Of a stretch of DNA of 64,000 nt, positions 7,553-38,890 are shown piece after piece. The stretch is from Enterobacteria phage GEC-3S. The stretch lies in sequence record HE978309, one strand, 5' to 3'. A program made the translations under genes and the position numbers. The notes below the pieces were generated by a model, which was given only the letters and a program-made list of their open reading frames with translations, made no database searches and was not told the DNA's origin. Position 1 is the stretch's first letter; each line of letters begins with the position of its first letter.

Positions 7553-8308
7553 TTATACCTCATTCAGTTCTATATCAAGTTCATTTTCAATAATATAGGC
7601 ATTAACTGCCCGTGCCGCATCATCTTCTGTGTCAAATCTTCCTATATACACACCGCGAACTTTAGCACCGTAATTACCTTGTTTTGGTACTTTGTAAACG
7701 TATCTATGACGGGAACTTGCTGCTTTTTGGAGCTTCTTGCCATATTCAGACTTTGCATATTCTATATCATCAATCTCGTTTATACAAGACCTATCACCAA
7801 AATGTTTCAACGCTGCAAGATTATATGCATACGCCGCACCGATCTCGGAGGGAAAATATCCTAAATGTATAGACTTCCCATCCAACATTATTGCACCAGT
7901 CCAATAACCTTTATTCTTATTAAACGACACACCTTTATACTTCGAATATGTTTTGCATTTGGTCTTGCTCATATTCATATTATTTTGTTTGCTTGTCGTC
8001 TCTCTAAGGTTTTCAATGCGGCTATTATAACGATCTCGGTCTTTATGATCTATATACTTAGGACAATGACCATGAAACATATGATAGATAACACGGTGCA
8101 TACGTTCGTATCGCTCGCCAGTCCATACAATACGATACCCATCGGGGGTATCACTTCCAGCTAATCCGTTTATAACACCTTTTCGGTGCGGGTGAATCTT
8201 CCACCTAAGAAAACCATCATCATAATAAAACCGTGAATGATATAAATCATATAAACGTTTATCTTCTGGAGTCTTGTGTATAACCTCATATTTTAACATT
8301 GGTGACAT
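7553..8308 (-). CDS. HNH homing endonuclease with two AP2-type DNA-binding domains (Mob-like)
   Basis: HNH core IDHKDRDRYNSRIENLRETT; AP2-like YKGVSF...GAAYAYN and GAKVRG...EDDAARAVN; paralog of the ORF at 35956-36696. Confidence 0.8.
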   Translation of the reverse strand: MSPMLKYEVIHKTPEDKRLYDLYHSRFYYDDGFLRWKIHPHRKGVINGLAGSDTPDGYRIVWTGERYERMHRVIYHMFHGHCPKYIDHKDRDRYNSRIENLRETTSKQNNMNMSKTKCKTYSKYKGVSFNKNKGYWTGAIMLDGKSIHLGYFPSEIGAAYAYNLAALKHFGDRSCINEIDDIEYAKSEYGKKLQKAASSRHRYVYKVPKQGNYGAKVRGVYIGRFDTEDDAARAVNAYIIENELDIELNEV

Positions 8309-31586: not shown

Positions 31587-32408
31587 TTATGCATCCTTCC
31601 AAACTTTCCTTGCGTCGTATTTCTTGCCTTTTGACATAAACTGATATGTAGGCATATAGATAATATTGCTCCAGTCTTTCGGGCTAATCTCAACAAGTTT
31701 TGTTTTAATGTGTCCCGGTAGATATGCTTTGATCATGTGGTCACTACCACGCATACCTTTTACATCGCTCCATTTGATTTTTAAGCGTGTTTTATTGCTC
31801 AAGGTAGGAGTAGATGCATATTGCTTTAAAAGTGCCTCTAAAAACTGCTGACGGGCTTTAGGAGTTACATAGTGTAAGTTAAGACCCAACATTACAGTAT
31901 TACCCGCCTTTGTCTTAGAATCACCCAGACAAATGATCAGCGGGAAAACATCCCAATATGGCAAAGTGTCTTTATACTTCGCATCATACATAAAGGTATA
32001 GATTCGCCCTACTTGCGGTTTTACAATCTGGTGTCCCTTTATTCCCGCTTTTATTGTTTTAGTAAACCACTCCTGTGATTTTTCTTTAGGACGACTCTTT
32101 GATACAGCACGCATAGACGCACGAAAATCATTAATCATCATCATTGCGCGTTGCTGCTTATTGAGACCCTTTGCGCCTTTCCCTTTTAGTTTTTCAACTT
32201 CTATTGCTGTTTTAATTTCGCTGGCATAACGAGACATACTTTTAGTGAAAGTCGCATAGGCTATTCCCTTAGAATCTGCAAATGCTTTAGCTGTCATTCC
32301 TTTGGCTTTTGCTTTCGCAAATTCTACACCCAATTCGACCCACTGTTTAGACTTTCGTTTTTGGGGAGACGGCTTTTCGTCTTCGGTGATTATTTCAAAT
32401 ACGCTCAT
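31587..32408 (-). CDS. 2: DNA end protector protein gp2
   Basis: position between genes 3 and 4; 273 aa; AGAGGATAATATTATG leader. Confidence 0.75.
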   Translation of the reverse strand: MSVFEIITEDEKPSPQKRKSKQWVELGVEFAKAKAKGMTAKAFADSKGIAYATFTKSMSRYASEIKTAIEVEKLKGKGAKGLNKQQRAMMMINDFRASMRAVSKSRPKEKSQEWFTKTIKAGIKGHQIVKPQVGRIYTFMYDAKYKDTLPYWDVFPLIICLGDSKTKAGNTVMLGLNLHYVTPKARQQFLEALLKQYASTPTLSNKTRLKIKWSDVKGMRGSDHMIKAYLPGHIKTKLVEISPKDWSNIIYMPTYQFMSKGKKYDARKVWKDA

Positions 32409-32419
32409 AATATTATCCT

Positions 32420-32893
32420 CTATTTGTTAAGCCCTTTAAAACCGAACACTTTCTTTAATGCATGTTCGGTTATGATCTTAAACTCCATGTTATGCTTTTG
32501 GCATAATTTCACGGCAGCTAACCATTTTTCAGTATTTTTTGTGTATGTCCATACTTCATGCATATATCGTTGCTTTGTCTTCGCGGTCATTCTTTTTGGC
32601 TTTTCCGGTGGCCTTGTCTCTTTAGCTGGTTTAACTTCCCATAAATGCTCCTTGCCATCATCAAACTTAACGTAAAAATCCATAAAGTATCTGTGTCTTT
32701 TTCCGTCTGTTGATGACTCATAAGGAATTACTACGGTCTCAGATCCCCATTTTGCAACTCTAGGATTGCGGTCTAGCCACTGCATGATCCATCTTTCCCA
32801 GCTTGAACGGTATGTGATCTTACGTATATCCCCTTTATACTTTTCCTTATTCTCAGGAACATACTTGCCCTTATAAGTGTTAGATCCTCCCAT
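32420..32893 (-). CDS. 4: head completion protein gp4
   Basis: position; 157 aa; leader AGGGTGCTAAAATG identical to the gene 53 leader. Confidence 0.75.
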   Translation of the reverse strand: MGGSNTYKGKYVPENKEKYKGDIRKITYRSSWERWIMQWLDRNPRVAKWGSETVVIPYESSTDGKRHRYFMDFYVKFDDGKEHLWEVKPAKETRPPEKPKRMTAKTKQRYMHEVWTYTKNTEKWLAAVKLCQKHNMEFKIITEHALKKVFGFKGLNK

Positions 32894-32908
32894 TTTAGCA
32901 CCCTTTAT

Positions 32909-32916
32909 TATAAATA
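32909..32916 (+). promoter_or_regulatory. T4-type late promoter TATAAATA for gene 53
   Basis: exact TATAAATA 33 bp upstream of the ATG; a 7/8 match (GATAAATA) on the minus strand at 32925-32932 faces gene 4. Confidence 0.65.
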
Positions 32917-32948
32917 CATAATACTATTTATCAATTGAGGGTGCTAAA

Positions 32949-33503
32949 ATGCTCTTTTCTTTCTTCCCTGCCATTGAATACAACGGCAAGATGATTACTG
33001 ACATTGTGCGCAATTACCGCGCATATTTCAACGCAATAATTTCTGATTATAACATACAAACATATTACATTCAAGGTAGTCCACGACCGGAACAAGTTGC
33101 ATATGAAGTATACGGAAACCAACAACTTTACTGGATCTTGCTGATGCTTAATGACGTATACGATCCGTTCCATGACTGGATCACCGATCAAGAGACAGCA
33201 TATGAATCAGCCGAACAACGATATGCAAATGTAGGAGGAAATCAAGTATTATACCATGTTGATATTGACGGAAACAAGTATTGGAATCTTACCGAATATC
33301 CGAAAGGATCAAGCAATTGGTATGATAAAGGGGATATTCATCACCGTCATTTGCAGTTTCAAGGTGCATTATCGGCGGTAGACACACTGGAAGATGCGAT
33401 CCTCCGCAATGAGGAACGACGCAAGATCAAGATCATAGATCCTACACAAATTAAACAATTTATTAACGCATTCATACGAGAAATGGAAAAGGCTGATGTG
33501 TAA
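32949..33503 (+). CDS. 53: baseplate wedge protein gp53
   Basis: position before gene 5; 184 aa. Confidence 0.75.
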   Translation: MLFSFFPAIEYNGKMITDIVRNYRAYFNAIISDYNIQTYYIQGSPRPEQVAYEVYGNQQLYWILLMLNDVYDPFHDWITDQETAYESAEQRYANVGGNQVLYHVDIDGNKYWNLTEYPKGSSNWYDKGDIHHRHLQFQGALSAVDTLEDAILRNEERRKIKIIDPTQIKQFINAFIREMEKADV

Positions 33504-33514
33504 GGTGATTAATT

Positions 33515-35314
33515 ATGCTAATGTTTAATAACTCCGTTAAATGGTTTACCGGAATTGTAGAAAACAGGGAAGACCCATTAATGTTGGGGCGTGTTCAGGT
33601 TAGGATTCATGGTATACATCCCTCGCTATCCGCACACGGTGACATTCAAGGTCTTCCAACCGAAGATCTATTATGGATTACGCCAGTACAAGATATTACA
33701 AGCGCGGCGATCTCCGGTATAGGTCAAAGCCCTACTGGTATTGTTGAAGGTTCAATGGTATTTGGTTTGGCTTTAGATGAACGTTATTTAAACTGCGTTA
33801 TTCTTGGTACTATTGCCGGACAATATACAGAGAAACCACTCACTACAGAGGGTTTTTGCGACCCTTCTGGTGCATATCCTCGTTATATTGGTAATGATGT
33901 TAATATTCTTGCTCGTGGCGGTATTAACCCAGAAACCGGACAAACAACAAAACCTGATAGTGTCTATATTCGAGATGAAAACACTGGAGTTGCAGTAAAT
34001 CCAGACGACGAGCCATTAGACCAAATTCCGGTTGATGATAATCCTGATTTTACAATAGAAAAAATGCTGCGTGGCGATGAGGGATATCGCGAGAAATGGT
34101 ATCTTGATTCAGAAGGATATCCGACAATAGGCATCGGGCATTTGATCATTTATAAGAAAACCAGCGATCTGGGTATTATCAATAATGAACTTTCTAAGCT
34201 GGTAGGGCGTGAAGTTACAAACGGAAGACTTACCGCCGAAGAAGTTAGTAAAGTATTTGCCGACGATATAGAAAAGACTCGTCGTGATATGCGCAAACAT
34301 CCACGAATTGCACCTGTCTATAATAAATGTAATGCCTCACGTCGTATGGCATTAGAAAATATGGCGTTTCAAATTGGTGTTGGTGGATTGGGTAAATTTA
34401 AGAATAGTCTTGCTGCGATGTTAGCGGAAGAATGGAAACAAGCCTATGATGGATTACGTCAATCGGTATGGGCTAACCAAACTCCAGGACGTTCAAGCCG
34501 TGTTTCTAAAATTATTTTAACTGGTAACTTAGAATCATATGGCGTAATTGCTCCAAAGAAAGAGGAATCGATTTCTGATGATCCGCGAGCACGTTTGAGA
34601 AATGCCCGTATTGCTGCCTATAAGACGCAGAGAGCAGAAGAAGACCCAGAAGCACCGTTTACCCCACAAGACACACGAATCATGTTTAAAGAGCCTAAGA
34701 GTTCGTATTCTGCGAGGTATCCTTATAACCATGTTTACGAGTCAGAGAGCGGTCATATTATCGAGATTGATGATACTCCTTCTCATGAGCGTTATCACCG
34801 CAAACATCCTTCTGGTACATTTGAAGAAACCAGGCCGGACGGAACGAGGGTAGAAAAGATTGAAGGCGATGATTATCTGATCGTTAAACAAGGCCGGAAA
34901 GTAAACGTTAAGGGTAATTTGCAAGTTGTTGTTGAAGGTGACGCGCAAGTTTATTATATGGGTAATGTGATGCAAACCGTTGATGGTAACGTCACGGAAT
35001 TTATTCGTGGTAATGTTAATCAGACCGTTGAGGGTACAGCTAATATGCATGTTGTAGGTGATGTTACCGCTCAGCTTGACGCTAATTTGACGGCTAACGT
35101 CAAGGGTAATGCTGAATTAATGATCGAGGGTAACACTACCGAAACAATTAAAGGTAACTATGATTTAACCGTTGAGGGTAATTTTAATATGACCGTCAAT
35201 GGCACTAAATCAGATCAGGTTAATGGTGACTGGTCCCGTAATTGTGGTGCAAGCGTTAAAGATATTGCATCTGGTACAGTTAAAATTGATGGTAGCCGTA
35301 TTGATCTTGGGTGA
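33515..35314 (+). CDS. 5: baseplate hub and tail lysozyme gp5
   Basis: T4-lysozyme-like core YLDSEGYPTIGIGHL; C-terminal VxGxxxxxx beta-helix repeats; 599 aa. Confidence 0.9.
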   Translation: MLMFNNSVKWFTGIVENREDPLMLGRVQVRIHGIHPSLSAHGDIQGLPTEDLLWITPVQDITSAAISGIGQSPTGIVEGSMVFGLALDERYLNCVILGTIAGQYTEKPLTTEGFCDPSGAYPRYIGNDVNILARGGINPETGQTTKPDSVYIRDENTGVAVNPDDEPLDQIPVDDNPDFTIEKMLRGDEGYREKWYLDSEGYPTIGIGHLIIYKKTSDLGIINNELSKLVGREVTNGRLTAEEVSKVFADDIEKTRRDMRKHPRIAPVYNKCNASRRMALENMAFQIGVGGLGKFKNSLAAMLAEEWKQAYDGLRQSVWANQTPGRSSRVSKIILTGNLESYGVIAPKKEESISDDPRARLRNARIAAYKTQRAEEDPEAPFTPQDTRIMFKEPKSSYSARYPYNHVYESESGHIIEIDDTPSHERYHRKHPSGTFEETRPDGTRVEKIEGDDYLIVKQGRKVNVKGNLQVVVEGDAQVYYMGNVMQTVDGNVTEFIRGNVNQTVEGTANMHVVGDVTAQLDANLTANVKGNAELMIEGNTTETIKGNYDLTVEGNFNMTVNGTKSDQVNGDWSRNCGASVKDIASGTVKIDGSRIDLG

Positions 35315-35322
35315 GGTAACTA

Positions 35323-35889
35323 ATGGTTGAAATTCTTCCGATGAGTTCAAAATTGGAGGATATCAGCGAGCGAGAAATCTTTGAGGTGGTGTTCTCTTAT
35401 AAAGCAACGCCACCGGATGCAAATACCACATACACGATTAAAGAGTTTAAGATCAGCGAGTATCGCCCTAATAAGGGCGTTACCGTTGAAGAAACTAAAA
35501 TATCTGGTGAGTATCTGGATAGTTTTTCGCTTGGCGCGGATTCTCTTAAATATATAACGAAAGATCGAATTAAAAAATCTGCCGGAAGTTTTGATGATTT
35601 ACCAGATCCAACTACCGCAGATCTATATTATTTTAACGCTCCTACACGTCTACAGGAGGTTTATACTTATAAAGTAACCCTAACCTATATCCAATCTGTT
35701 TCAGAGTCTTCTGGGGGGTCTGGTGAAGGAAATAGTGGTGGTTCCAATAGCCGAGAGGGTTCTGGTGAAACTAATCCTCCTCCGGTAGTAACCGAGCACA
35801 CAATAGAGAAAGTTTATACTCAAACCGTTTTTGGAAATTGGGATGTGTGGAGTAAACAGTTAAGAGATTATGTACATAGGGGTGTTTAA
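35323..35889 (+). CDS. hypothetical protein at the T4 5.1 position
   Basis: track ORF; ATG overlaps the gene 5 stop region. Confidence 0.6.
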   Translation: MVEILPMSSKLEDISEREIFEVVFSYKATPPDANTTYTIKEFKISEYRPNKGVTVEETKISGEYLDSFSLGADSLKYITKDRIKKSAGSFDDLPDPTTADLYYFNAPTRLQEVYTYKVTLTYIQSVSESSGGSGEGNSGGSNSREGSGETNPPPVVTEHTIEKVYTQTVFGNWDVWSKQLRDYVHRGV

Positions 35890-35955
35890 TGGCTGGCGGG
35901 TGTCGATGCCCCGCCGTCATAAATAGTTATATAATGATTTAATATGAGGTGTTTT

Positions 35956-36696
35956 ATGATTAAAGTGCATGACGATTTCAAAGAACTTTATAATGTATGC
36001 TCTGAACGTTTTTATTATGATGAAACGAGCGGAACAATTAGACGAAAATATGATTGTAAGAGCAATCATTATAAAGCGGGTGATGTAGTAGGATATAAAA
36101 GAAAACAAAAAAGAACAAATAGTGAAGATGGTGTGTTCTATCTGTTTACTAAGATTGATGGAGTTTCTTATTCAATTCAACAAATTGTCTTCTTGCTTAC
36201 CGAAGGGTATATACCCAATTGCATCGATCATATTAACAGAGACACACTAGATAATCACCGTGAAAATCTTCGTGATGCATCGCGAAGCGGAAATTCTCGC
36301 AATAAATGCAAGGTATATAAAAATGGTTTCGCCTCTTCCGATTACATTGGTGTGTCTAAGCGGGGTTCTGGATTTAGGTGTCGTATTAGAATAGACCATG
36401 TTATTGCATATGATGAAACGTTCGAAAATGAAACATCTGCTGCATATGCATATAACGTAGAATGTATAAAATTAGGTGTCAGTGAGTATACCAACTTTAA
36501 TAAATTTGAAGACGAAGAATCTGTTAGGAAACTTTACGAAAAAGAGAAAGAAAATAAAGAGTTTCAAGAATATTGGAAGGGAACACATAAACAGGGTAAA
36601 AGATGGGGTGCTAAAGTTAAGAGTGTGCGTTTGGGTACATTCGAAACAAGGGAAGAAGCTAGACTAGCTATAATTCGCTACAAAGAGGGGGTTTGA
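35956..36696 (+). CDS. HNH homing endonuclease with AP2-type domains, inserted between 5.1 and 5.4
   Basis: HNH core [20 protein letters not shown]; AP2-like YIGVS...SAAYAYN and GAKVKS...EEARLAI; start taken at second ATG behind GAGGTG; stop overlaps 5.4 start (TGATG). Confidence 0.75.
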
Positions 36697-36989
36697 TGGC
36701 TGGTTTATCATATGACAAAGCAAAAACTACTGGACATGGTAATTACGGTCCGACAATAATTAATGCAACTCAATCTAAGGTATTTGTTGAGGGTATCCCT
36801 GTATTAGTCGAAGGAGACCCAATTACACCACACACAAAAACAACAAAGCCTTATGATACACACGGGGGAACTACGGTCGCCAGTACCCCGAAAGTATTTG
36901 TTACCGGAAAGAAAGCAATTCAAATGGCAGATCGTATTAGCTGTGGCGATACCGTCGCTATGGCATCACCGAAGGTATTCATAAAATGA
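36696..36989 (+). CDS. 5.4: PAAR-repeat baseplate spike tip protein gp5.4
   Basis: 97 aa, as T4 gp5.4; position before gene 6; track ORF begins one codon earlier at TTG. Confidence 0.7.
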
Positions 36990-38890
36990 CAAAGCAAAAG
37001 ATTACACAAATTCCTGATATTTTTAATGCTGCTACATTCGATGAAATTAAAAGCGCATTAACAGACTGGATGAGAAACCAGGAAGAATTTAAAGATTTTG
37101 ATTTTAATGGTGCTGGTATTAACGTATTGATGGACTTGCTCGCATATAACACTCTGTATATTCAGCAATTCGCTAACGCCGCGCTATATGAATCTTTTAT
37201 CAGAACGGCAATTAAGCGTAGTTCAGTTGTTCAAGCCGCGCAAGATTTAGGATATTTGCCAGCAAGTAAAACTAGTGCATCGACTACAATTATGTTGCAC
37301 GTAACACATCCGCGAAATCCGGCAAGTATTCGAATCCCACGAGGAACTAAATTTATTGCAAGTGTGGACCGCCAGACGTCTTATCCGTTTGTGACTACAG
37401 AAGACGTTGTGAGCGTTTTAGGTTCAAATGGTTTATATACTCCTATGCTTAAAGTCGCACAAGGTCGTATTGTTCGTACAGAAATGTTATTTGATCCGAA
37501 GAAACAAATTCTGATCCGCGATCCAGATATTGACCGCGCTCAGGTTAAGTTGTGGGTAGACGGTGCTGAATGGAAAGACTGGACGCGAGAAAGTATTGTT
37601 AATGCAACTGGCGCTAGTAATATTTTCTATATGCGTGAAACCGTAGACGGACATACTGAAATTTTCTTTGGTGAGGGTGAATCAACTTTATCTGCTGCTG
37701 GCGGTGCACTGGAAGCAAATTATATTGGTGGACTTAAGCCGTCAACTGGCGCTAATATTGTTATCGAATATATCAGCACTAAAGGCGCGGAAGCAAACGG
37801 ATCTGTCAATTTCACATACGCGGATACCCTTGCATCTATCTCTATTGTTAAAATTATTGAGAATCCGACAAATGATCGTGATTATGTCGGTGCAGATGGT
37901 GGTGGTGACCCTGAATCAATCGAACGTATCCGTGAACTTGCTCCGGTAATGCGTGAATCTCAGCGTCGTTGTGTTACTGCTTCTGACTATGAGGCTTTTG
38001 TGTCTAGCCGTTTTGGTAGTATTGTTCAGGCGGTACAATGTTTCACCGACCGAGAAAAACCGGGTTATGCTTTTGTTGCTGTTAAGCCTAAATCTGGCTT
38101 GCGTTTGACAACTGTTCAAAAAGAAGATATGCGGGATTATCTGGCAAAATATAATCTTGCCCCTATCACGCCGAGCATCATTGACCCTAACTATCTGTAT
38201 ATTAAACAGAATATTAAAGTTTCCTATTCAATCAATGACTTGTCAGAATCAGAGCAGTGGTTGCGCGGTGCGGTTATTGATCAGATTGATGCATATTATA
38301 CCGACGAAGTGGAAATTTTTAACCAGACATTTAGTAAGTCTAAAATGCTTGCTCGTATTGACAAAGCTGATGTATCTGTGATAGGTTCTAGTGCAGAAAT
38401 CGAGATGGTGCGAGAGATCGACAACTTCTATAAAGCGCCTATGGCTGGAATCAAGTTTTTAAACCAGTATAAGAGCGGAATCAAGTCTAGTTCATTCAAC
38501 TTCGAAAAGGACGACAAGCAATATCCGATCCATTATGTAAGTACAGAAATGAACAAAGAATCCGGTTTAGCTAAATTGCTGGTTGGACCTTTCCCTGTTG
38601 ATTCTACAATCGCTTTACCGCACTATTCCGGCACTGATTTTGATAAAGAGGTTATTGACGGTGCGGACCTATACTTTGAGGTTGGAGAGGTTCAGCATTA
38701 TGACGACCTTATTTCATGGGATCTGGGTAAACTGAATATCAATAGCGATCGCTTTACTGGTTCATATATTGAGTTGACAGCTAAACCGATTGCTGATAAC
38801 ATCTTTACTAAAGACGGTTCTTTGATCGTGTTTGAAAACGATCTCCGTCCTCAGTACACAACTATTAGTCTGGAGGCAATTGCTCAATGA
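36986..38890 (+). CDS. 6: baseplate wedge protein gp6
   Basis: 634 aa; position and size as T4 gp6; ATGA overlaps with both neighbours. Confidence 0.85.

Follow-up and report, generated by a model that had tools for sequence, protein, structure and literature searches.

Between genes 5.1 and 5.4 in the baseplate cluster of Enterobacteria phage GEC-3S (sequence record HE978309) lies a gene that most close relatives lack, which raises the question of what this gene is and how it came to occupy such a tightly packed junction. The stretch analysed here, referred to as the window, is 64,000 nt long, and all coordinates are positions within it on the + strand unless marked otherwise. On its sequence, the window is part of a Krischvirus genome (an RB49-like, T4-type coliphage): a 2.8-kb query around the insert matched 58 phage records at 95-99% identity, all of them Krischvirus, and the carrier counts given below refer to a total of 57-58 such records. 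The original prediction was that a free-standing HNH-AP2 homing endonuclease gene had been inserted between 5.1 and 5.4, and our analysis upholds this for the gene, which we call HEG-W. It is suggested here, with good but not complete confidence, that HEG-W encodes a free-standing homing endonuclease whose cleavage target is the 5' end of the ordinary gene 5.4, and that a recoded patch in the carriers' own gene 5.4 is the corresponding immune allele.

Alignment of the window junctions with the empty site of RB49 defined an insert of 807 nt. The empty site reads ...GGGGTGTTTAATGGCTGG to the left of the insertion point and ATTATCC to its right, with the 5.1 stop overlapping the 5.4 start, and the same TAATG overlap, with nothing between the two genes, is found in RB49, JSE, Phi1, ECD7, Brandy, Cognac, Sf20 and AV108. 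The original prediction had looked to related phages for insert-free alleles, and these form the large majority, about 45 of the 57-58 Krischvirus records, including RB49, JSE and Phi1. An imperfect 17-nt direct repeat (88% identity, spacing 807) brackets the insert (Table 1). The predicted overlap of the HEG-W stop with the start of gene 5.4 (TGATG, 36694-36698) is also present. The cassette rebuilds a stop/start overlap and a Shine-Dalgarno (SD) sequence for gene 5.4, and leaves an orphaned 5.4 start on its left.

The open reading frame (ORF) in the insert, 35944-36696, encodes 250 amino acids (aa). The ATG at 35956 is the better start, having the SD sequence GAGGT 5 nt upstream, and the resulting 246-aa product is the one annotated in phages W115, Skers, JEP8, G2494 and Whisky; the W115 and Skers records already label the gene a '(putative) HNH homing endonuclease'. 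The protein matches Pfam HNH_3 (PF13392) over residues 75-115 with 31.9 bits against a cut-off of 24.8, and PHROG 99, 'HNH endonuclease', at 4e-40. Residues D91, H92, N104, R106, N113 and N116 are invariant in our alignment A3 of nine sequences (a 45-sequence set of distant relatives, many with tandem modules, misaligned and was not used), and none of the catalytic codons varies over ten copies of the gene. An AlphaFold2 (AF2) model places strands at 89-92 and 105-108 and a helix at 110-116 in the HNH region, with a predicted local distance difference test score (pLDDT) of 72-84. A Foldseek search with the model matched the beta-beta-alpha-Me enzyme I-PpoI weakly (E 1.6), and a profile built from A3 matched the I-HmuI structure 1u3e in the PDB at 3.1e-6. 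We assign the HNH core to the I-HmuI (beta-beta-alpha-metal) type. Single-sequence phmmer against the PDB returned only noise for HEG-W, so the family profile was needed. We infer from the sequence that HEG-W is an active nuclease.

The C-terminal half is predicted to contain two DNA-binding domains of the AP2 type, the first of which is atypical in sequence. The AP2 label is justified because a full-length homologue, the gene at 7553-8308 discussed below, passes the Pfam AP2 cut-off, and because the family profile, the AF2 model and the Foldseek matches agree. The model (mean pLDDT 73.7, rising to 83-93 in the C-terminal half) contains strand-strand-strand-helix units at 133-173 and 210-243. 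Foldseek matched it to WRI1, which has two AP2 domains, with a probability score of 0.99, to TEM1 with 0.98, and to AtERF1 with a root-mean-square deviation of 1.3 A over 42 residues. The A3 profile found the same three structures in the PDB: WRI1 at 1.3e-15 in two stretches, TEM1 at 3e-11 and AtERF1 at 5e-8. The C-terminal part of HEG-W also aligns with the AP2 domain of a third relative.

HEG-W is intact and full length in 10 of 10 copies. Its 23 variable sites comprise 14 synonymous changes over 147 sites and 9 non-synonymous changes over 591 sites (pN/pS ~0.16), and on this substitution pattern the gene is under purifying selection.

The observation that links HEG-W to a particular target is found in the adjoining gene. 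In a 7.8-kb alignment of the window, five carriers and eight non-carriers, 16 differences are fixed between carriers and non-carriers, and all of them fall within 36704-36756, at the start of gene 5.4. This patch alters 14 of 19 codons, 12 of the 14 synonymously, the two amino-acid changes being P18G and V21I. It is 100% identical in 10 of 10 carriers and shows ~80% identity to the other 50 Krischvirus records, and from 36757 onward carriers and non-carriers cannot be told apart. A carrier-specific block adjoining the endonuclease gene is the signature expected of the protected target of a homing endonuclease. The patch is therefore probably a protected (immune) version of the HEG-W target.

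If HEG-W acts in this way, then in a mixed infection with a cassette-free relative the enzyme would recognise and cut or nick the 5' end of the ordinary gene 5.4, ATGGCTGGATTATCCTACGATAAAGCTAAAACTACAGGGCACGGAAACTACCCACCTACGGTA, the target most likely lying within its first ~60 nt. The broken end would be resected, and strand invasion of the UvsX type would copy the gene together with flanking markers from the carrier. Such recombination-dependent repair, as in T4, would co-convert the endonuclease gene and the recoded ~60 bases ('intronless homing', a term defined for the seg and mob genes of T4; PMC2988022), while the patch would shield the carrier's own gene 5.4 from cutting. Marker exclusion around the baseplate genes, which the original prediction had proposed, is plausible by analogy with T4 precedents (PMC2988022). 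Present-day genomes keep linkage over ~60 nt only, and this weakens the marker-exclusion reading.

The distribution of the cassette is sporadic. Five of the Krischvirus records carry HEG-W (Whisky, JEP8, W115, Skers and G2494; >98% protein identity), as do four SRA/ENA metagenome contigs with identical context, and the insertion site and both junctions are the same in all ten carrier sequences, the window included. The next tblastn matches to HEG-W are below 40% identity. In two very large protein searches a single 50%-identity cluster holds HEG-W, its next relatives reaching at most 46% in partial alignments, and the wider HNH-AP2 family numbers 15,791 cluster representatives at E <= 1e-3 (1.84-billion-protein search). 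The carriers are not monophyletic in either the left or the right flank. ECD7, which has no insert, differs from the window at 42 sites of the left flank, and the carriers Whisky and JEP8 differ at ~160 sites. Divergence among carriers is 1.0% in the cassette vs 3.4% and 2.1% in the flanks. These comparisons suggest that the cassette has spread horizontally, its history differing from that of its flanks, although frequent recombination after a single entry could mimic the same pattern.

Further insight is provided by a rival gene at the same junction. HEG-K encodes an HNH_3 + AP2 protein of 179 aa, 30% identical to HEG-W, and is carried by six phages (KFS-EC, MIZ4, MIZ5, G37-3, G5211 and Makalu_003). 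The HEG-K insertion point, a few bases further left than that of HEG-W, falls within the 3' end of gene 5.1 and gives the product of that gene a new C-terminus. The ordinary 5.4 allele is present in five of the six, so HEG-K does not need the patch. The sixth, KFS-EC, has HEG-K, then GGGGTTTTGATGG, then the complete patch, and no HEG-W; GGGGTTTTGATGG matches exactly the end of the window-type gene in its common form, with the final codons, the stop and the start. The simplest history suggested by this arrangement is that a conversion tract of ~70 nt, centred on the patch, passed from a HEG-W carrier to a HEG-K phage, with the HEG-W gene left behind. Exactly this product would result if the 5' end of an ordinary gene 5.4 were broken and then repaired from a carrier through a short tract. 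An allele resistant to the rival enzyme would also be favoured by selection. The case for a role of the patch in its own right depends mainly on this one genome.

Several points weigh against a target in the 5' end of gene 5.4, or against the assignment of HEG-W itself. KFS-EC is the only mosaic of its kind. The patch begins 8 nt after the HEG-W stop, so that the association of patch and gene may be mere tight linkage to diverged donor DNA. No donor lineage for either was found by blastn, in an IMG/VR scan, in the 1.84-billion-protein search or among 53 gp5.4 clusters. Pfam AP2 (PF00847) is below threshold in HEG-W (15.9 bits, E 0.016, vs 33.3, over residues 214-244 only), and the sequence of the first AP2-like domain deviates from the consensus of the family, with F for W, C for A and no 'LG'. 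In the literature we found no cleavage or cross data for HEG-W or for other HNH-AP2 enzymes encoded by T4-type phages. Moreover, free-standing endonucleases of T4 often cut hundreds of bases from their own genes (PMC2988022), so the real HEG-W cut site could lie elsewhere.

The alternative that survives best draws on some of these points. HEG-W could be a mobile homing endonuclease as proposed, with the patch having simply hitch-hiked from a diverged donor genome, and the cut falling at the 5.1/5.4 junction that the insert interrupts or hundreds of bases away, as the habits of the T4 seg and mob enzymes would allow (PMC2988022). With 8 identical bases between gene and patch, and no run of identity within the patch longer than 8 nt, recombination could hardly have unlinked the two; and 14 changed codons of 19, one of them altered at all three positions (CCA to GGT), resemble ancient divergence rather than stepwise escape. 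Yet KFS-EC acquired the patch without HEG-W, and a double exchange that short is unlikely unless there was a break nearby or selection. In addition, no other fixed carrier-specific difference within +/-3.5 kb marks a distant protected site, and no gp5.4 lineage with the 'GPTII' sequence that might have been the donor was found. We therefore regard the hitch-hiking explanation as unlikely.

It is more doubtful still that HEG-W is a decayed or domesticated endonuclease, kept as an AP2-type DNA-binding regulator or because translation of gene 5.4 has come to depend on it through the hairpin at 36660-36707 and the TGATG overlap. I-TevI, an endonuclease that doubles as a repressor, is a precedent for such a fate. 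The atypical first AP2-like domain, a cassette-specific predicted hairpin that sequesters the SD sequence and AUG of gene 5.4, and a cassette that has reached only ~10% of genomes and shows no signs of a sweep would all fit. The catalytic D-H...N...N residues are nevertheless intact, all ten copies are full length at the low pN/pS given above, the carriers have differing genomic backgrounds, and the tract in KFS-EC suggests recent activity. Least probable is a passive cassette moved by ordinary or repeat-mediated recombination, like the promoter early stem-loop (PeSL) cassettes of RB49 and phi1, and not by its own nuclease: the left GGCGGG...CCCGCC stem-loop resembles those of PeSLs, the insert is bracketed by the 17-nt repeat and T4-type phages recombine on short homologies (PMC2839356), but there is no sigma-70-type promoter with the stem-loop and no second stem-loop on the right, PeSLs occur mainly in hyperplastic early regions (PMC2839356) and this insert is among the late baseplate genes, nothing related to the 5' leader was found elsewhere, the cargo is itself a nuclease and belongs to a known mobile family, and the recoded patch would be left unexplained.

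A homing endonuclease with gene 5.4 as its target thus remains the preferred reading, and the patch deserves further comment on its own account. Codon 18 (36747-36749) has changed from CCA to GGT at all three bases, giving P18G in a PPT motif. This motif, with P18, is kept in 50 of 53 clusters of gp5.4 homologues, and the GNYGPTII allele occurs in 0 of the 53. The motif being nearly invariant, P18G is unusual, and it may impose a structural cost on the PAAR spike tip. In carriers it is read here as a side-effect of a selfish element rather than an adaptation of host range. A blastn search with the patch gave Krischvirus matches only. A templated origin from a 14-nt exact match to the start of gene 6 (repeat D2) was considered and rejected, as simulated random recodings of the same codons gave matches of equal length in 33% of trials.

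The right-hand edge of the cassette contains the hairpin mentioned above, predicted to pair the last endonuclease codons with the beginning of gene 5.4 (Table 1). Its folding energy is -18.2 kcal/mol (z -4.4), and 0 of 200 shuffled sequences were as stable; in W115 the same hairpin has -15.7 kcal/mol (z -3.1). No fold of this type was found at the empty site of RB49 or at the MIZ4 (HEG-K) and KFS-EC junctions. Position 36704, where the recoding begins, contributes a further pair to this stem. The cassette copies are ~99% identical, too alike for a covariation test of this hairpin. It is conceivable, though we consider it doubtful, that gp5.4 is made only by ribosomes that finish the endonuclease ORF, a translational 'addiction'. 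If this were true, silencing or loss of the selfish gene would be penalised. Taken together with KFS-EC, in which a rival endonuclease gene has acquired the protective patch but not HEG-W, the 5.1/5.4 junction would be an arena of competition between endonucleases.

The left-hand edge differs in character. The G+C-rich hairpin that the original prediction placed at 35895-35915 is real, with a core of 6 G-C pairs, and extends to 35894-35916 (-13.8 kcal/mol, z -2.95; 2 of 200 shuffles fold as well); a longer form, 35880-35928, has -21.4 kcal/mol (z -2.6). Two roles for it were rejected. It is not an intrinsic terminator, as no T-run follows it and a terminator scan calls nothing there. Nor does it sequester the ribosome-binding site of the endonuclease in the manner of mobE or I-TevI, as it leaves this site uncovered and 35920-35975 is unstructured (-3.9 kcal/mol, z +0.9). 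Identity with a PeSL cassette (Arbiol et al. 2010) was also rejected: the stem-loop is present, but there is no sigma-70 promoter and the location is late. An Rfam search of 35000-37500 gave no match, a scan upstream of HEG-W found no sigma-70-like promoter, and a search with the 5' leader matched the five carriers only. The box CATAAATA at 35918-35925, 30 nt before the endonuclease ATG, had been read as a late promoter. Its match at 7 of 8 positions holds, but its status as a promoter does not follow: the window has 3 copies of this octamer vs 4.9 expected by chance, so the match alone is not evidence of a promoter and the box is a candidate only.

The orphaned 5.4 start opens a vestigial mini-ORF, which crosses the hairpin and stops 13 nt before the endonuclease ATG, its sequence being the same in all carriers. 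It may provide a route by which ribosomes leaving gene 5.1 reach the endonuclease start, if it is translated and coupled. With regard to transcription, a perfect T4-type late box, TATAAATA, lies just upstream of gene 53 and is the sole + strand copy between 32909 and 44525, and no terminator-like site was detected from gene 5.1 to gene 6. This box is the probable start of a late baseplate transcript (53-5-5.1-HEG-5.4-6-7), on which the endonuclease cassette may ride. Perfect late boxes number 8 in the window vs 6.1 expected. Expression of HEG-W would then probably be late, as a passenger on this transcript that uses its own SD sequence.

The 3' end of gene 5.1 in the window is the ordinary allele, as in RB49. 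A polymorphic block in the 3' part of this gene (35851-35861, SK vs AQ) segregates independently of the insert: the non-carrier ECD7 has the window allele, and the carriers JEP8 and G2494 have the RB49 type (JEP8 with one base different). As these alleles are unlinked to the endonuclease gene, recombination has taken place within 40 nt of the left junction. Separately, the left flank of phage Brandy (equivalent to 32300-35880, 3.6 kb) differs from each of the other Krischvirus loci at more than 315 sites, its right side being ordinary, which suggests that a divergent gene 4/53/5 segment was gained by recombination.

Two other endonuclease genes are relevant to the locus or to the window. Whisky has a third HNH_3 + AP2 gene, of 184 aa and 41% identical to that of KFS-EC, between genes 5.4 and 6; as this phage also carries HEG-W, two endonuclease genes flank its gene 5.4. 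The third gene alters the last four codons of 5.4 (FIK-stop to YIR-stop) and restores a CATAAAATGAC junction to gene 6. The other gene lies at 7553-8308 in the window and had been described as a paralog of HEG-W. Homology is borne out by a full-length alignment (30% identity, E 1e-13) and the same architecture. Duplication is not: the gene is present in 6 of 57 Krischvirus records (ELT3, pEJ01, Sf20, KMB43, PHB13 and phiS), none of which has the HEG-W insert between 5.1 and 5.4, and with no record carrying both and identity at 30% the two look like separate acquisitions.

Table 1. Features of the HEG-W locus and of related endonuclease genes. Positions are those of the window, except where a locus number (L) precedes them.
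Feature	Position	Strand	Remarks
Second HNH + 2xAP2 gene, 251 aa	7553-8308	-	between nrdC and dam; AP2 35.6 bits, above cut-off
T4-type late promoter box TATAAATA, perfect	32909-32916	+	just upstream of gene 53
Gene 53	32949-33503	+	first in gene order upstream of insert
Gene 5, hub/lysozyme	33515-35314	+	
Gene 5.1 homologue, 188 aa	35323-35889	+	stop TAA 35887-35889; phrog_1168 5e-53; PF26906 Phage_T4_Y07E
Left repeat copy GGGTGTTTAATGGCTGG	35880-35896	+	3' end of 5.1 and orphaned first 8 nt of 5.4 (ATGGCTGG, 35889-35896)
Vestigial mini-ORF, 17 codons, MAGGCRCPAVINSYIMI then stop	35889-35942	+	opens at orphaned 5.4 start overlapping 5.1 stop (TAATG)
Endonuclease gene HEG-W, 246 aa	35956-36696	+	ATG 35956; stop TGA 36694-36696; SD GAGGT 35946-35950
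HNH core, residues ~75-116	36178-36303	+	
First AP2-like domain, residues ~129-175	36340-36480	+	
Second AP2-like domain, residues ~205-244	36568-36687	+	
Predicted RNA hairpin	36660-36707	+	pairs last endonuclease codons (36660-36676) with 5.4 SD, AUG and first codons (36689-36707)
Right repeat copy GGGGGTTTGATGGCTGG	36687-36703	+	rebuilt SD/stop/start junction for gene 5.4
Gene 5.4, PAAR spike tip, 97 aa	36696-36989	+	Pfam PAAR 2e-10
Recoded patch, gene 5.4 codons 3-21	36704-36756	+	16 substitutions vs every insert-free genome
Gene 6	36986-38890	+	gene 7 next
HEG-K	L017:2948-3487 (KFS-EC); L020:946-1485 (MIZ4); L021:946-1485 (G37-3)		
Whisky third gene	L003:2693-3247 = L008:4693-5247		

The element is an uncharacterised example of a textbook T4-type element, and conceptually it is not new. 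As a natural example it is unusually clean: its candidate target has been narrowed to ~60 bases of the gene for the PAAR spike tip, and insert-free, rival-occupied and mosaic (KFS-EC) alleles are all present in cultured phages. Three different endonuclease genes are found at the same baseplate junction across T4 and Krischvirus. The locus bears on the specificity of HNH-AP2 enzymes, a class with little biochemistry, on the competition of endonucleases for one site, and on the question of whether therapeutic E. coli phages exchange baseplate alleles through such elements.

The closest known counterpart by position is segC of T4, a mobile GIY-YIG gene between 5.1 and 5.3/5.4 (PMC2988022 Table 1). 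Both it and HEG-W occupy the gap after 5.1 and before the PAAR gene 5.4, free-standing within a late structural operon. segC is described as a promoter-less cassette that uses upstream promoters, and seven free-standing endonuclease genes of T4 are described as cassettes of this kind (PMC2988022). The enzymes differ, GIY-YIG in the one and HNH + AP2 in the other, with no sequence relationship expected or seen. The arrangement differs also: segC has a 20-bp overlap with 5.1, and 5.3 comes next, whereas HEG-W has a 66-nt leader with a hairpin and directly abuts 5.4.

In its genetic arrangement HEG-W resembles the MobE/MobA-type and SegF/SegG systems of T4. In each, a free-standing gene adjoins its presumed target and is sporadic among close relatives, and carriers differ from non-carriers by substitutions in the neighbouring gene. 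The outcome expected of intronless homing is localised marker exclusion with co-conversion (PMC2988022; PMC2790892 for mobE). The Mob proteins combine HNH with other C-terminal regions, and HEG-W has AP2; the cut sites of Mob and Seg enzymes are often hundreds of bp from the gene, and the candidate target of HEG-W starts 8 nt away. Activity has been demonstrated for the Mob and Seg enzymes, whereas HEG-W is known from its sequence.

By domain structure HEG-W belongs with the HNH-AP2 proteins of phages, cyanobacteria and Tetrahymena, in which an HNH_3 core is followed by one or more AP2 domains. This is a counted class in T4-type phages (Petrov et al. 2010), with 1 member in RB49, 2 in JSE, 3 in RB43 and 6 in RB16 (PMC2993671 Table 5), and PHROG 99 is common to HEG-W, the other copies in the window and those of related phages. 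Within the class HEG-W forms an isolated lineage, and it has two AP2-like domains vs one in HEG-K and in the third gene of Whisky.

The replacement of one endonuclease gene by another at a single locus also has a precedent, in SegH/Hef vs mobC/mobE as cited in PMC2988022 (its ref. 41). HEG-W, HEG-K and segC of T4 similarly share one locus, with the third gene of Whisky one gene further along, and judged from these genomes, endonucleases of unrelated families have landed repeatedly at the junction that follows gene 5.1. Set beside the SegH/Hef case, KFS-EC joins one endonuclease to the flanking patch of the other.

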